Sequence record: PP069513
From: Escherichia phage BUCT-XGG-1
DNA: 49,653 bases
Strand: one strand, 5' to 3'
The translations under genes were made by a program, and so were the position numbers. Positions 47-44,020 of this stretch are shown piece by piece (within the stretch, counting starts at the first letter, position 1; every line of letters begins with the position of its first letter). Below the pieces are notes generated by a model, which saw only the letters and a list, made by a program, of their open reading frames with translations, was not told where the DNA came from and did no database searches.

Positions 47-271
47 ATGAAAATGAACCAGGATCTTAATAAAATTGCTTTCAACAATACCATCGCTGAC
101 ATTGCTGCCAAGGTCGAGCTATCCCGCAATCCCGTTAAGCAGATCGCTTCTGAGTGTGAGTTCTTCGCATTGCAGATTGAAGGTGACGAATACAAGAGAG
201 TGTTTGCAGCCCTAAGTAAATGCAAAACACGCAAAGCAATGAGTATTATCATCAATAGCACGAATTGCTAA
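47..271 (+). CDS. hypothetical early protein (74 aa)
   Basis: ORF with AGAGA-like RBS; last codons NSTNC plus TAA stop are supplied by the 19-bp box at 254-272. Confidence 0.5.
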   Translation: MKMNQDLNKIAFNNTIADIAAKVELSRNPVKQIASECEFFALQIEGDEYKRVFAALSKCKTRKAMSIIINSTNC

Positions 272-298
272 ACTAAGCCTCACGGATTGAGGCATAAT
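254..298 (+). promoter_or_regulatory. box promoter candidate (AATAGCACGAATTGCTAAA, then -10 CATAAT)
   Basis: Box 254-272, hairpin GCCTCA/TGAGGC, CATAAT at 293-298 (22-bp gap from TTGCTA); followed by leader CATCGAAACGAA and gene 337..561. Confidence 0.5.
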
Positions 299-336
299 AA
301 TTTCATCGAAACGAAGTACACAAAGAGGAAGTAAAA

Positions 337-561
337 ATGTCAGTTAAAACTCAGAACGTAGTGGCACACATCGAAGCAAAAGGCCGTGCAATCGTCAAGC
401 TGGACCGCGCCGCAGGCGTAAGCCAAATCACCATCACGCGCCGTGAGTTCGACCGCTACGTTGTTGGCACACATCCAGGCTCAATCATCCGTAGCCTTAC
501 CCGTGCTGAGATGGTAAACCTGTTAAACGATAACTCACTTTACATCAATTCCTGGAGCTAG
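337..561 (+). CDS. hypothetical protein (74 aa)
   Basis: ORF with RBS AAGAGGAAG upstream of ATG. Confidence 0.5.
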   Translation: MSVKTQNVVAHIEAKGRAIVKLDRAAGVSQITITRREFDRYVVGTHPGSIIRSLTRAEMVNLLNDNSLYINSWS

Positions 562-563
562 CA

Positions 564-779
564 GTGCATCAAGACAATTTCTGTAGCCGCCACCGCGCGG
601 CACTTGAAGCCGGACTCAATGAAGAGTGGGCGCTCAATGTTGCTTACGGATGCATCGAACTCGATGACGCATTGGGCGTTATGGATATGGATCTGGAAAG
701 CGAAGGCAACCAGTCAGTAGACGGAATCGGTGATGACTTCGACTACCGCTTAAAATTTGATGACGGCATACCGTTCTAA
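564..779 (+). CDS. small acidic protein ending in SSB-like tip (FDDGIPF)
   Basis: GTG start with GGAG RBS; very acidic; C-terminus DDGIPF resembles the SSB C-terminal tip DDDIPF. Confidence 0.5.
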   Translation: MHQDNFCSRHRAALEAGLNEEWALNVAYGCIELDDALGVMDMDLESEGNQSVDGIGDDFDYRLKFDDGIPF

Positions 780-1465: not shown

Positions 1466-1756
1466 GTGGCGCTTAAAAATTATCAAGCAATAGATAAAAA
1501 GAAAGGACTTACATGCACCATGACAATTGATGATGTTGATGAGTTGCAGTCAATGCCATGCTACTATTGCGGAGATACGGAGCGGGTTGGTGCTGACAGG
1601 ATTGGCAACTCACTTGCTCACACGCGCAAAAACTGCCTTCCATGTTGCCCTGATTGTAATATCTGTAGGAGTAACACTTTTTCAGTTGATGAGATGATGG
1701 TGATAGGCAAAGCGATAAGACTCGTAAAGAAATCAAGAAATAGCACGAATTGCTAA
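1466..1756 (+). CDS. HNH-like endonuclease domain protein
   Basis: GTG start; Cys/His/Asn pattern CYYCG..DRI..H..N..PCC..CN; C-terminal NSTNC and stop encoded by the box. Confidence 0.45.
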   Translation: MALKNYQAIDKKKGLTCTMTIDDVDELQSMPCYYCGDTERVGADRIGNSLAHTRKNCLPCCPDCNICRSNTFSVDEMMVIGKAIRLVKKSRNSTNC

Positions 1757-1783
1757 AGCCCTTCGGGGCTTTTCCTGTATATT
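1739..1783 (+). promoter_or_regulatory. box promoter candidate (TGTATATT -10)
   Basis: Box 1739-1757, hairpin GCCCTTCGGGGC, TATATT at 1778-1783 (22-bp gap), leader CATCGAAACGAA, gene 1822. Confidence 0.5.
1758..1775 (+). terminator. intrinsic terminator-like hairpin
   Basis: GCCC TTCG GGGC followed by TTTTCC, directly after stop of 1466..1756. Confidence 0.4.
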
Positions 1784-1821
1784 CATCTCATCGAAACGAA
1801 ACACACTAAAGGAAAATAATC

Positions 1822-2175
1822 ATGGCTACCACTATCACCAAAAACTTCGTCACATCCGATAACCGCCTACTGAAAGCTCGCGTGAAAGATGAGGTAGAGC
1901 AAATCAAGGTTGATGGCAAGTGGGTTAACCTGGACGTCAAGGGGCGCTACATTAAGACCAAAACCCTTTACGTTACGAAGATTAATCACAAGTCTTCCGT
2001 TAAAAAAGACTTCACGCAAGGTAAACGCTATCAGGTTGACATGCGCGCAGGACTCGGTAGTAACGCTGGTTACATCTTCGACAACGACGGCGTAGCCTGG
2101 CAATTGTACCGCTCGGATGATGTCGGATTCGAAACAGTGTGCGGAACTTACCGATTTGAGGCGGCGTATAAATAA
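1822..2175 (+). CDS. hypothetical protein (117 aa)
   Basis: ORF with RBS AAAGGAAAA. Confidence 0.5.
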   Translation: MATTITKNFVTSDNRLLKARVKDEVEQIKVDGKWVNLDVKGRYIKTKTLYVTKINHKSSVKKDFTQGKRYQVDMRAGLGSNAGYIFDNDGVAWQLYRSDDVGFETVCGTYRFEAAYK

Positions 2176-2246
2176 GTAGCATTTTCTGGCAAGCGGTTTT
2201 ACCATAGGTGCGTTAACATTAGCGCACCAACTAAGGAGTTATTTTA

Positions 2247-3830
2247 ATGTTTGATTTCAACGAAGATAAATTGTCAATCGATCAGGTCATGGCTGTAGCA
2301 GCTGCCGATAACCTGCCACCTTTGCGCGTTGCCATCAATGCGAACGGATACAGGCAGAGCCAATCATTCTGGAAAGCCCCAACAGAAATTGACTCAGGCG
2401 GTGACAAATATCCGGTTATCTCACTTGGTAACGATTATGATGTCGTTGGTAAGCTGTCAAGCAATGCCGCTCGTTCAGTTCAGTTCCCCGAGTCGTCCGC
2501 TTACATGCATTTCCTCGGATGCATATCAGCCGCCATGCTGGGCAGATTTACGGTTGAGTATCACGGAACACAACAGCCTACCGCGCTGTACGTCGTAACC
2601 AGTCAGCCACCATCGACAGGTAAATCAGCCATCAACTCACTTTCGCTGGCCCCGATGATCGCAGAGACTGAGCGACTCAACGAGATCAGAAAGCGTGACC
2701 GCAAGAAGATTATGGCTAAGCTCTCCGCTCTATCCAAGGAGATGAAGCAGGAGAAATCACCGTCTGACATGGCGGCGCTGTTTGAGGAAAAAGAAGAACT
2801 GGAAGAAAAACTGGAGCGACTTTGTGACATCGTGTTCCCCGTATCCGACACCACGCCGGAAGGTCTTGCGCGAATCAACAACCGCCAGGGAAACTTTGCA
2901 GTGATCTCGGATGAAGCAACGAGCGTGAACTCACTGTTAGGCATGACCTATGGTGATGGCTCGAAGAAAACGAACAGCGAACTCGTTCTTAAGGCGTGGG
3001 ATGCTGGTAACGTATCTATCGCGCGTGCGAACGCAGACAATAACATGAGCTTCATTGCGATGGGCTGCATATCTGTAATTGCACAGGATGAAACGATAAA
3101 CGCGATCATGAACGCTGGCGCGCGTGGTATCGGTGTATCCGAGCGTTTCCTGCTTGTGCGTGAGAAGTCATTCCTTGGTGAGCGTGTGTTCGTAGATGAG
3201 AAAGGCGAATCAACATATGAGCCGATTGATGGCGGACTCAAGGCGGACTACTTCCGTCTGGTCCATGAGATCATGAGCGAACACGAAGTCAACCTGACAG
3301 TGAGCACGTCGGCGATGAAATATCTCAACCGTGCGCGTCAGGATATGGAACCTCACCTTGCGGACGGCGGTAAGTATTCACACACAATGCTTCGCGGCGC
3401 GCTGGGTAAGTTCGATAAGCAGGCTATCAGGATCGCGGCTGTTCTTCACACTGTGCGTAACTGGTTTAATCCCAATGGCGGGAGTCCGCAGAAGTCCAGA
3501 GAGATTGAGCTTGACACAATGCAGGAAGCAGTAATTATGTTCCAGGAACTGAGTAAGACCTATCTGTCATCTGCAAACGCTGCTGGTCATGCTGGCGACC
3601 ATGCGGAGATGAATAAGCTGATCGATATTCTGATCAAGCAAGGTAAGAACGGGAAAGGCGTTGTAGGTGTCCGATCCCTATATGAAGCGGCTCGTAAGGT
3701 TAAGCCATTCGAGGGCCAGGCTGGCGTAATGACTCGAATCAAAGACCATCTGATCCCTATGCTTGATGAGAAAAACTATACGTGCCTGATTGGTGATAAA
3801 ATTTACATTAATCCGCGACTGCTGGGGTAA
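2247..3830 (+). CDS. large early protein with P-loop-like motifs (527 aa)
   Basis: RBS AAGGAG; Walker A-like PSTGKS and Walker B-like VISDEAT; N- and C-terminal segments repeated in 47566..48123. Confidence 0.6.
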   Translation: MFDFNEDKLSIDQVMAVAAADNLPPLRVAINANGYRQSQSFWKAPTEIDSGGDKYPVISLGNDYDVVGKLSSNAARSVQFPESSAYMHFLGCISAAMLGRFTVEYHGTQQPTALYVVTSQPPSTGKSAINSLSLAPMIAETERLNEIRKRDRKKIMAKLSALSKEMKQEKSPSDMAALFEEKEELEEKLERLCDIVFPVSDTTPEGLARINNRQGNFAVISDEATSVNSLLGMTYGDGSKKTNSELVLKAWDAGNVSIARANADNNMSFIAMGCISVIAQDETINAIMNAGARGIGVSERFLLVREKSFLGERVFVDEKGESTYEPIDGGLKADYFRLVHEIMSEHEVNLTVSTSAMKYLNRARQDMEPHLADGGKYSHTMLRGALGKFDKQAIRIAAVLHTVRNWFNPNGGSPQKSREIELDTMQEAVIMFQELSKTYLSSANAAGHAGDHAEMNKLIDILIKQGKNGKGVVGVRSLYEAARKVKPFEGQAGVMTRIKDHLIPMLDEKNYTCLIGDKIYINPRLLG

Positions 3831-7841: not shown

Positions 7842-7886
7842 AGTATACCCGCGCGGTGGCGGGTATGTTTAGCAATTCGTGCTATT
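7842..7886 (-). promoter_or_regulatory. box promoter candidate
   Basis: Box 7868-7886 containing TAG stop of 7882..8109; TATACT at 7842-7847 (22-bp gap). Confidence 0.45.
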
Positions 7887-16268: not shown

Positions 16269-16718
16269 TCAGAATGGGATGTCATCATCGAACTGGTTTT
16301 GCTGCTGCGGTTGCTGCTGCTGGCGTTGTTGCTGCTGAGGCTGCTGACGTTGTTGCTGCTGGCCTTGGCCCTGCTGTGATGGCTCACGCTGGCTGAATTG
16401 CAACTGAGGCCGGATCATCTCTGCGGTTACATAAACAGTGCCGTCATTACCCTGGCGTGACGCCAAGTGAAGCGTGTCGGCAGAAATTGATACAATCTTA
16501 CCTTCCTTGAACGCTTCATCATACCACTGCATAACGTTTTCTTTTGCGAAGAACGTAGCGCGGTAGTTACTGTAAACCGTCTCATCCTCGCCCTGTTGAT
16601 TGCGAATCTTCATGCGTTCTGACAGTTCGACGGCGTACATTTTCCAGCGCCCGTTGTTGTTGCTGCCTTCTTTGGTAAATGGTGCTTTTCGGATCTGACC
16701 AGTGATTACGTGTGGCAT
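16269..16718 (-). CDS. ssb: single-stranded DNA-binding protein
   Basis: Gln/Pro-rich linker and acidic C-terminal tip DDDIPF characteristic of bacterial-type SSB. Confidence 0.85.
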   Translation of the reverse strand: MPHVITGQIRKAPFTKEGSNNNGRWKMYAVELSERMKIRNQQGEDETVYSNYRATFFAKENVMQWYDEAFKEGKIVSISADTLHLASRQGNDGTVYVTAEMIRPQLQFSQREPSQQGQGQQQQRQQPQQQQRQQQQPQQQNQFDDDIPF

Positions 16719-16758: not shown

Positions 16759-17415
16759 TTAGAATTGCTCGATGGATTCAGATTGTACAGGTTCGGACGG
16801 TGCATTTGCAACCTTGTCTTCAACCTTTTGAGTATCTGCCTTTTTCGCTGGCTGGAAACCGCGAGCGTTACCGATACTCAGTTCAGCCTTGCGCTTCTGC
16901 AAGTGGTCTTCTGCAATCTTCCATTCCGCCGCGCCAAGCGAACCTTTCGCGCTCTTATAGATCACCTGGAGGTCTTCCAGTTTTTCACAGTTGGTGATAA
17001 GTTTTTTGTAGTCCGCTGCCGTGCGCTTCGCGATTTCAGCGTCGTCATCGCTCTGAGTGATTCCAAGCGCTGCGCACAATGCGTAACGGCGACCGTATGA
17101 GGTTGTTGAGCCGTAAGCCTGGGCGCTAATCTTCTCGATCGGCATATTGTACTGGAACGCAAGCCACTCGCCGGAGCTGTGAAGTATGAGTGTCTCAATG
17201 TGCATTACCTTCTCGGTTGACGTGTCAAGATTTGACTGGATAACCATAAGGTCATGCTCTTTTAGTGCTGGCTCAACAGCCTCCAGAACGTCCGTCAGGT
17301 TTGAGTAATGGTTTTTCAGGTGAGTGTTAAATCCTGATTTTTTTGCGATAGCAAACTGCTTTTTAGCTGCAATTAGAGCGGCTGAAACATTCGAAAACTT
17401 CTCTGATGTACGCAT
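16759..17415 (-). CDS. Erf-family single-strand annealing protein
   Basis: GSTTSYGRRYAL-type motif of ERF recombinases; next to exonuclease and SSB. Confidence 0.7.
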   Translation of the reverse strand: MRTSEKFSNVSAALIAAKKQFAIAKKSGFNTHLKNHYSNLTDVLEAVEPALKEHDLMVIQSNLDTSTEKVMHIETLILHSSGEWLAFQYNMPIEKISAQAYGSTTSYGRRYALCAALGITQSDDDAEIAKRTAADYKKLITNCEKLEDLQVIYKSAKGSLGAAEWKIAEDHLQKRKAELSIGNARGFQPAKKADTQKVEDKVANAPSEPVQSESIEQF

Positions 17416-43355: not shown

Positions 43356-43401
43356 ACTATAACAAAACCCGCCGGAGCGGGTTTAGCAATTCGTGCTATT
43401 T
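43356..43401 (-). promoter_or_regulatory. box promoter candidate
   Basis: Box 43382-43401 abutting TAA of kinase gene; hairpin CCCGCTCCGGCGGG; TGTTATAGT (22-bp gap). Confidence 0.5.
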
Positions 43402-44020
43402 ACCAAGGAATATCGTCGGCCCAATCATCATCCATTGAAGGACTAACCAAGCAAGCGCGAACTACTTTAAGGACGCCATCATCAACATCACCATTTACCA
43501 GATGCACATCATGCTCGTTATATTTCTTGTAATCAGGGAAGTGCGATTCCTTGATGCGGATGTAATCACGGCTATCTCCCGCGAAAGTCTTGCCATCCAT
43601 GAACAAGCGGACCAGGGTAACATCGTGACCATCTTCAACGAGTCGAATCACTTCATCGGGGAAGCCGCCATCAGTGCAAACAAAACAGAAGCCTTCATCA
43701 CACAGACGGATATGTTCGCTCATCAATTTGCCGAACTGCTGATTGCCAAAAAGCGGCTTGACCACCGTTTCGCTAATCCAGATCATGAACTCACGGCAGG
43801 TCTTGCCACCGAGAAAGACCTGAGGCTGCTCTTTCTGATCGCGGTCGTCGTATGCTGTGATGAACTTTGAAAAAGCCCTGGCCCCAAGGATGGATGCTGC
43901 AATCTCAAACATCGGACGTTTGAAGCTGGTAGGGATGCAATTGTAATCTGCTGCCAGTGCATTGCCGATCGTGTCTTTACCTACGCCAGCAGGGCCGTTT
44001 AGAATGATAATCTTTGACAT
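43400..44020 (-). CDS. P-loop kinase (dNMP kinase-like) with SSB-like tip DDIPW
   Basis: Walker A GPAGVGKDT; C-terminus DDDWADDIPW. Confidence 0.6.
   Translation of the reverse strand: MSKIIILNGPAGVGKDTIGNALAADYNCIPTSFKRPMFEIAASILGARAFSKFITAYDDRDQKEQPQVFLGGKTCREFMIWISETVVKPLFGNQQFGKLMSEHIRLCDEGFCFVCTDGGFPDEVIRLVEDGHDVTLVRLFMDGKTFAGDSRDYIRIKESHFPDYKKYNEHDVHLVNGDVDDGVLKVVRACLVSPSMDDDWADDIPW

Follow-up and report, generated by a model that had tools for sequence, protein, structure and literature searches.

A conserved acidic 71-residue protein of a T1-like Escherichia phage ends in a motif resembling the tail of single-stranded DNA-binding protein

Why would a small, uncharacterised phage protein end in almost the same residues as the tail of SSB (single-stranded DNA-binding protein), the very segment that docks on so many enzymes of DNA metabolism? 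The question is raised by a gene at 564..779 (+ strand) in Escherichia phage BUCT-XGG-1 (sequence record PP069513), which was analysed here as a single stretch of 49,653 nucleotides (hereafter, the window). Both DNA and protein searches place the phage among the T1-like siphoviruses (Drexlerviridae), and the gene encodes an acidic protein of 71 amino acids whose database label is ‘hypothetical protein’. A preliminary description of the locus had likened the end of this product to the SSB tip and had suggested a protein carrying only that tip. Our comparisons indicate instead an uncharacterised, well-conserved phage protein of two modules, in which the C-terminal motif is under selection and, in the clade to which the window belongs, reproduces the SSB tip. 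In a full-text search of the literature, neither this family nor a decoy or adaptor role of an SSB tail on a protein other than SSB was found to have been described.

The coding sequence runs from a GTG start at 564 to a stop codon at 777..779. A ribosome-binding box, GGAG, can be read directly at 554..557, six nucleotides before the GTG, and in the alignment the start falls at the same position in the homologues. The product begins with MHQDNFCSRH and ends in ...DFDYRLKFDDGIPF, and the stop codon directly follows Phe71, leaving the terminal aromatic residue and its free carboxylate at the very end of the chain. The preliminary description had called the product strongly acidic, and the computed composition bears this out, with 17 Asp and Glu residues against 4 Lys and Arg residues, a net charge of -13, and a pI of 4.05; the N-terminal domain on its own has a net charge of -8. 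In profile searches the protein matched PHROG 9085 over its full length (residues 1-71, E 1.9e-32) and PHROG 9323 over residues 1-47 (E 8.5e-21), and it is a member of uncharacterised PHROGs only. Searches of Pfam, NCBIfam, and PDB sequences, made with the protein and with a 29-member profile, gave nothing meaningful; in the PDB-sequence search there was no match at E <= 0.01, the sole match being a designed repeat protein at E 0.032, and comparison of the AlphaFold2 model with the PDB by Foldseek gave none at E <= 0.001.

The tip itself reads F-D-D-G-I-P-F (residues 65-71; 756..776), and six of its seven positions are the same as in the tail of the phage's own SSB, FDDDIPF, so the likeness on which the preliminary description was built is real. 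That SSB is a protein of 149 residues with a Gln-rich linker and the C-terminus ...QQNQFDDDIPF; its gene occupies 16269..16718, with the last seven codons at 16272..16292, and while the coordinates and the tail had been described correctly, the gene lies on the minus strand, which is corrected here. It matches PHROG 44 ‘single strand DNA binding protein’ (E 1.5e-26), and a Pfam scan of it gave no significant match. The SSB of E. coli ends in DDDIPF (PMC3632105), and the phage motif FDDDIPF has been described in a preprint as closely like the E. coli SSB tip (bioRxiv 10.64898/2026.04.29.721553). In E. coli, this tip docks on exonuclease I, RecQ, RecO, chi, and DnaG, in hydrophobic pockets that have a basic rim; the critical contacts are made by the final Phe, which is essentially invariant, by the penultimate Pro, and by the free carboxyl end, and a change of the penultimate Pro gives the ssb-113 defect while a single Gly added after the Phe impairs function (PMC3632105). 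The 71-residue protein has the penultimate Pro and a hydrophobic residue at -3 (I-P-F), and it shares the general layout of SSB, a flexible linker followed by an acidic tip that ends in I-P-F.

How often such an end should occur was estimated from the amino-acid composition of the window, which gives a probability of 4.3e-7 for a protein ending in DDxIP[FW], that is, about 3e-5 expected occurrences per 80 genes. In a six-frame census of the window, covering stop-terminated segments of at least 30 amino acids, only three of 868 segments end in [ILVMF]P[FWY]. Each of these is a real gene whose product has acidic residues ahead of the tip: the 71-residue open reading frame (ORF), the SSB gene, and a gene at 43400..44020 (- strand) for a protein resembling deoxynucleoside monophosphate (dNMP) kinases. 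Their tails have in common an aromatic residue at -7, Asp at -5, and an end of the form I-P-aromatic.

The family of the 71-residue protein is large. It was found by tblastn in 377 phage records, mostly of phages infecting Enterobacteriaceae, which is consistent with Drexlerviridae; protein searches gave 39 close clusters and 254 clusters in total, an exhaustive hidden Markov model (HMM) search added about 30 further diverse representatives, and members also occur in metagenomic contigs. Ankyrin and PKD repeat proteins (P0040, P0055, P0066) that came up in the HMM search were discarded as false positives. A terminal tripeptide of a hydrophobic residue, Pro, and Phe or Trp is kept in 138 of the 144 short members (IPF in 57, FPF in 57, IPW in 19, LPF in two, VPF in one, and PFW in two), while the remaining six comprise one ending in EPF, one in ISF, and four truncated or frameshifted fragments. 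The last residue is accordingly Phe or Trp in 138 of 144, two of these ending in IPFW, with an extra Trp beyond the Phe. Among the DNA loci, the only change of Pro to Gln is found in IMGVR_UViG_2711768829_000001 (49,816 bp; gene at about 3001..3225), where the protein ends in CKRCFQF. The codons of the tip differ between clades (ATA, ATT, ATC, TTC, ATG, CTA, or GTA for the first residue; CCG, CCC, CCA, or CCT for Pro; TTC, TTT, or TGG for the last), yet the residues persist, and selection therefore acts on the protein and not on an overlapping DNA element. This rules out a conserved tip that is a mere by-product of such an element, an origin that does explain certain other shared endings in these phages (see below).

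The tip shows purifying selection, and since it is near-invariant while the linker before it is hypervariable, it is evidently the selected functional end of the protein; that it serves as a C-terminal docking motif is very probable. What is conserved across the family, judging from the same alignments, is however a hydrophobic residue, Pro, and Phe or Trp at a free C-terminus, and not the full SSB tip. Positions -6 to -4 are D-D-G in the 71-residue protein (two of three acidic), D-D-Y in the T1 clade, and part of C-K/A/P-R-C in the largest other clade, and because the acidic residues are not conserved across the family, in which CKRCFPF is a common ending, the likeness to SSB is strongest in the clade of the window. 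The reading of the end as an SSB-type tip is thus supported in part, by the selected tripeptide and by the match at six of seven positions in this clade, and it does not extend, as far as its acidic part is concerned, to the family as a whole.

The margin of the family is illustrated by phage AugustePiccard, where the equivalent locus (bas01_0062; 2126..2299, +) encodes a 57-residue protein of PHROG 9053 that ends in CCDGLGCEECLPW (CEECLPW). BLAST and tblastn searches with the 71-residue protein did not detect this gene, which is too diverged; the hhalign comparison of its product with the family profile is weak (E 2e-4), and the layout is kept, so that the product reads as a diverged member. 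As a separate observation, Cronobacter phage ESP2949-1 has an unannotated ORF of 89 residues at 16283..16552 (-), assigned to PHROG 7116 (unknown function), whose product ends in WEYVEELPF and may be a further protein whose Pro-Phe tail is acidic.

The tip is not all that the protein carries, and on this point the preliminary description did not hold. Residues 1-46 (564..701) form a conserved N-terminal domain, with the signature AGLNxEWAxxVAY...LDxALGxMDMDxES, which AlphaFold2, supplied with the alignment of the family, models as three helices (residues 4-15, 20-27, and 33-45) with a predicted local distance difference test score (pLDDT) of about 76-81; in the alignments (A1-A4) it is the most conserved block of the family. 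From residue 45 to the C-terminus the model is a non-regular tail with pLDDT < 55, and the tail is not packed on the helical domain, as expected of a linear motif. The protein lacks the OB fold of bacterial-type SSB, giving no match in Pfam or NCBIfam and an AlphaFold2 model of helices without strands. The linker between domain and tip (residues 47-64; 702..755) is acidic, variable, and predicted to be disordered; in the family it is hypervariable in length and cannot be aligned between clades. It is acidic and free of cysteines in the clades of the window and of T1, and most other clades have in its place a four-cysteine arrangement, CxC-x5-CxxC, a probable zinc knuckle. The AlphaFold2 model of one such relative is of low confidence throughout (mean pLDDT 59) and gives no sign of the tip packing on the helical domain. 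A zinc finger of the DksA/TraR type (CxxC-x17-CxxC) was considered and rejected, since the relatives have CxC-x5-CxxC, the 71-residue protein has no such cysteines, and there is no Pfam match.

The N-terminal module (AGLNxEWA...ALGDMDxDxE) is also found without the tip, inside proteins of 140-310 residues from other types of phages, all of them uncharacterised. Against the viral models of BFVD, Foldseek returned only uncharacterised proteins that share this module, some of them of 143-245 residues and from Ackermannviridae-type phages; the matches come from Salmonella phages ViI and PhiSH19, Erwinia phage phiEa2809, and Pantoea phage LIET2. Longer metagenomic proteins, too, have the module without the tip, and the longer relatives P0060, P0062, P0065, P0070, and P0072 have the module, no tip, and no Pfam match in our scan; a precomputed match to Phage_Mu_gp6 in the record of one longer relative could not be reproduced, and two of the longer proteins continue into a region resembling a zinc ribbon (CPAC...CPAC). 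Because the module occurs without the tip in these longer proteins, the domain and the tip are separate modules that were combined in Drexlerviridae.

A tail of the same kind stands on an unrelated protein of the window. The kinase-like P-loop protein of 206 residues encoded at 43400..44020 (-) matches PHROG 139 ‘deoxynucleoside monophosphate kinase’ (E 3.3e-44) and has the C-terminus ...DDDWADDIPW, with the tail W-A-D-D-I-P-W at 43403..43423. An acidic stretch followed by an [ILVT]-P-W end is present in 84 of 120 clusters of kinase homologues (e.g., IDEWADDIPW, EWEDGLPW, and EELDEIPW), and the distant clades of about 50% identity end in ...DHLAK without any such extension; among six complete genomes, two (the window and HazelMika) have the tail and four do not. 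As the deeper clades lack it, the tail was gained as a module, added to the protein and then kept. This pattern suggests that the kinase is tethered to whatever receives SSB-type tails. An old proposal holds that the nucleotide-synthesis enzymes of T4 gather at the replication fork via gp32, and by analogy the kinase tail suggests a recruitment use of the SSB-tail code. Since the kinase carries the same kind of tail as the 71-residue protein, the tail looks like a portable address label, one that several phage proteins would use.

The surroundings of the gene are also conserved. It is the second in a run of small ORFs on the + strand that begins after a repeated cassette at about 254..336; this place in an operon of small ORFs is what makes early expression, as named in the preliminary description, a possibility. 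Directly upstream lies a gene for a basic protein of 74 residues (337..561, +; pI 10.1; PHROG 4344), whose stop codon at 559..561 precedes the GTG by two bases, so that the two genes look translationally coupled. In T1, Tls-like phages, tonijn, HazelMika, ESP2949-1, and one metagenomic contig, tblastn places the 74-residue gene immediately upstream of the small gene or one gene removed from it, and given this synteny the basic and the acidic protein may form a complex. In the same strand block, a DUF3987-type helicase of 527 residues is encoded at 2247..3830 (+; PHROG 2373, E 3.5e-255), and in every related locus examined that reaches that far, this helicase gene is found one to five genes downstream of the small gene. 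The recurrent order runs from the basic 74-residue gene to the small acidic gene, then through either a cytosine methyltransferase or a few short ORFs to the DUF3987 helicase, and it is seen in T1, Tls-like phages, Warwickvirus, Vilniusvirus, Kyungwonvirus, and those metagenomic contigs that are long enough.

The SSB gene has neighbours of its own. It directly adjoins a gene for an Erf-like single-strand annealing protein (16759..17415, -; PHROG 155, E 1.3e-42), and an exonuclease VIII-like gene lies two genes beyond the latter in the same minus-strand block. Phage annealing proteins are known to read SSB tails: what RecT proteins recognise is the final seven residues (Filsinger et al. preprint), and Sak4 depends on the final six of its cognate SSB (PMC5928155). 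By analogy with these, we infer that the Erf-like protein is a candidate phage-encoded receptor of the SSB-type tail. All six Drexlerviridae genomes examined have the same SSB tail, FDDDIPF, and this constancy argues that the receptors of SSB tails matter in these infections.

The cassette at the head of the operon (254..336, +) consists of a 19-mer, a GC-rich hairpin, a TATAAT-like box, and a leader. It measures about 90 nucleotides. The conserved 19-mer AATAGCACGAATTGCTAAA (pattern AATAGCAC[G/T]AATTGCTAAA) is followed by the hairpin, which has a run of T after it in some copies; the TATAAT-like box stands 23 nucleotides after TTGCTA, and the conserved leader TCATCGAAACGA comes next. Seven occurrences of the string AC[G/T]AATTGCTAA were counted in the window, where 0.32 would be expected, and copies of the cassette are found at 254..336, at 1739..1821, and on the minus strand near 7880, 9185, 14284, 43394, and 47564. 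It is probably a phage promoter/terminator unit; a spacing of 23 nucleotides is unusual for a sigma-70 promoter. A generic promoter scan of the upstream region gave nothing convincing. The cassette also leaves its mark on proteins: unrelated products end in NSTNC or NSTNW (47..271 and 1466..1756 in the window, both +, and the kinases of Brooksby and ESP2949-1) because the 3' ends of their genes run into the conserved 19-mer.

We propose that the 71-residue protein is a two-part competitor or adaptor for the SSB-tip pocket, and would give this reading a probability of roughly 45%. The three-helix N-terminal domain, the flexible acidic linker, and the free C-terminal F-D-D-G-I-P-F would together make a docking protein of two parts. 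Its end would insert into the SSB-tail site, the hydrophobic pocket with a basic rim found on SSB-partner enzymes, and the protein would there compete with host and phage SSB for one or a few partners. On the host side the partner could be exonuclease I, RecQ, RecJ, PriA, or the chi subunit; on the phage side, the Erf-like annealing protein or a helicase is an equal candidate. A second contact, made by the N-terminal domain, would set specificity, either by adding affinity for the target, in the case of an inhibitor, or by holding a second protein, in the case of an adaptor. An attractive though unproven target is exonuclease I, which is recruited by the SSB tail and destroys the 3' single-stranded tails generated by an exonuclease VIII/Erf recombination system; to this enzyme, an acidic domain bearing an SSB tail would resemble SSB-coated single-stranded DNA. 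Whether or not the protein acts in this manner, it is conceivable, at a little short of even odds, that the receptor of the tip is an SSB-tail pocket. In its broadest form, the proposal makes the host's SSB-tail code a general address label for T1-like phages. At least three of their proteins (SSB, the dNMP kinase, and the 71-residue protein) would carry interchangeable acidic I-P-F/W tails that compete for one pocket on a hub enzyme, and the 71-residue protein would be dedicated to blocking or re-routing, by way of its tail, a host SSB partner, exonuclease I for instance; taken in full, this is speculative and rather doubtful.

Several observations weigh against a competitor or adaptor for the SSB-tip pocket. 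The acidic residues that contact the basic rim of such pockets are not conserved in the family, and in the Tls/Warwickvirus clade the end is C-[KAP]-R-C-F-P-F, where the tip is directly preceded by a basic residue and the probable zinc knuckle. Because most of the diverse members have the cysteine knuckle, the acidic, SSB-like tail of the window clade may be a derived state. The two members that end in IPFW bury the carboxylate of the Phe. The tip of the small protein varies (IPF, IPW, FPF, MPF) while that of SSB is constant as FDDDIPF in the six genomes, and no covariation is seen; with an invariant SSB, this comparison is uninformative about a link and mildly negative, and the members ending in LPF, VPF, or EPF lie on contigs too short to reach the SSB gene or to indicate a host. 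A lack of covariation would also be expected if SSB has to suit many partners and the small protein just a single one. Lastly, a single-tailed monomer would be a weak competitor of tetrameric SSB if its N-terminal domain added no affinity.

Some of these same observations favour a receptor that has nothing to do with SSB. The terminal hydrophobic-Pro-aromatic motif could dock, for example, on the cleft of the beta sliding clamp, on the 74-residue protein, or on the DUF3987 helicase, and the match to SSB would then amount to an acidic linker that happens to stand beside a shared tripeptide. Such a partner would suit a family-wide motif of just three residues, the absence of the acidic part in the CKRCFPF clade, the four-cysteine knuckle before the tip in most of the diverse members, a tip that varies beside an unvarying SSB, and the tight synteny of the small gene with the basic 74-residue gene and the helicase gene. 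It does not account for a match that spans seven residues in the window clade, including the aromatic at -7, or for the same extended pattern on the kinase. The clamp in particular fits poorly: clamp-binding motifs follow the consensus QL[SD]LF or QLxLxL, and ...KFDDGIPF lacks both the Gln and the Leu that the motif requires at its fixed positions (position 2 of the consensus among them), for which reason a beta-clamp-binding motif was rejected. Moreover, the SSB tip has as its hallmark a final Pro-Phe whose carboxylate is free (PMC3632105). We consider an SSB-unrelated partner unlikely on balance, but a serious contender. The protein might, on the other hand, be mainly an acidic mimic of nucleic acid, of the anti-restriction or anti-RecBCD type, whose surface blocks a DNA-binding enzyme and whose tip serves stability or a minor contact. 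Its net charge of -13, pI of 4.05, and N-terminal domain at -8, its small and helical build, and its place among small ORFs near methyltransferase genes in many relatives are all in keeping with this, and the linear genomes of T1-type phages are exposed to host exonucleases. The strong negative charge that marks DNA mimics is certainly present, but it is a feature unspecific to that group of proteins, and charge leaves unexplained both why the last three residues are the strictest feature outside the N-terminal domain and why an unrelated kinase has the same tail; nor did Pfam, NCBIfam, PDB sequences, or Foldseek against the PDB reveal any likeness in sequence or fold to known mimics such as Ocr, ArdA, Gam, and gp5.9. 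A role mainly as a mimic is therefore improbable.

A tip that works within its own protein, or in its turnover, is slightly more improbable still. It could fold onto the helical domain or the zinc knuckle, or act as a C-terminal degradation signal, and hydrophobic C-termini can indeed serve as protease tags. In the knuckle variants the tip comes directly after the last cysteine and may belong to the folded unit, and the tails of E. coli SSB bind back on the SSB core (cited in PMC5928155). However, both AlphaFold2 models give a tail of low confidence that is not packed, a degradation signal needs neither a penultimate Pro nor a terminal aromatic residue across diverse clades, and the kinase gained its tail as an extension beyond the fold. 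As for a chance resemblance, or an ORF that is not a gene at all, short ORFs are readily over-called, but this one recurs, with its start conserved and a ribosome-binding site before it, in phages and metagenomic contigs by the hundred, about 3e-5 such endings are expected per genome, and the tip bears the signs of purifying selection; both possibilities are effectively refuted.

The interest of a competitor or adaptor for the SSB-tip pocket lies in the importance of the pocket. The SSB tail is a central docking point for more than a dozen bacterial enzymes of replication, repair, and recombination, and it is pursued as an antibiotic target. If the broadest form of the proposal is true, the 71-residue protein would be the first natural protein inhibitor of the SSB interaction hub. 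A phage protein that copies the SSB tail would show how viruses tap or jam this hub while offering a ready-made probe or inhibitor scaffold. The natural variants of the tip (IPF, IPW, FPF, and LPW, with or without the zinc knuckle) are a built-in mutational series for mapping the partner that is targeted. The tail on the nucleotide kinase points to a simple means by which phages could channel nucleotides to the replication fork. The finding may, in addition, be relevant to those defence systems that detect SSB-like proteins of phages or rely on exonuclease I.

Set beside known systems, the protein resembles each in part. With the C-terminus of bacterial SSB (...DFDDDIPF in E. coli) it shares the position at the extreme C-terminus, the free carboxylate, I-P-F after Asp residues, the aromatic residue at -7, and the flexible acidic segment. 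Unlike SSB, it has a helical domain of 46 residues in place of the OB fold, and nothing suggests that it binds single-stranded DNA or forms a tetramer; its tail has Gly for Asp at -4, and in sister clades there is a cysteine knuckle and the last residue can be Trp. T7 Ocr, gp5.9, lambda Gam, and Ugi are small acidic early mimics of DNA, and the 71-residue protein is likewise small, strongly negative, helical, and encoded among small ORFs of unknown function, but it has no likeness to them in sequence or structure, and the mimics have no conserved C-terminal Pro-aromatic motif. Mimicry of a hub motif is known from the clamp-binding tails of T4 gp33 and gp55 and from staphylococcal phage proteins that block the beta clamp; there too a small phage protein gains access to a pocket of a replication hub through a short linear motif at its terminus, albeit with a different hub and a different motif, and no case involving the SSB-tail pocket was found in the literature searched.

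Together with these clamp motifs, two further systems make up the closest conceptual precedents. Bas52_0087 is an SSB-like phage protein tipped with FDDDIPF; the DRT10 defence system is not triggered without it, it is linked to host exonuclease I, and its authors propose an interface with host enzymes that process single-stranded DNA, such as SbcB (bioRxiv 10.64898/2026.04.29.721553). Like the 71-residue protein, it is a phage protein with a copy of the host SSB tip; unlike it, Bas52_0087 is large, has two OB folds, is itself SSB-like, and comes from a different phage family, whereas the 71-residue protein has no OB fold. In T7, the acidic tails ending in Phe of gp2.5 (the SSB) and gp4 (the helicase-primase) were reportedly found by Kong and Richardson in 1998 (cited in PMC5928155) to compete for the same site on the T7 DNA polymerase. 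The T7 tails differ in that they bind a polymerase encoded by the phage, while the tail described here copies the tip of host SSB and not a phage-specific one; T1-type phages are not known to encode a polymerase, and there is none among the replication genes annotated in the window. In both cases, however, several proteins of one phage share an acidic tail with an aromatic end, which in T7 take turns on a common receptor, and by this analogy the trio of SSB, kinase, and 71-residue protein would follow the same logic.

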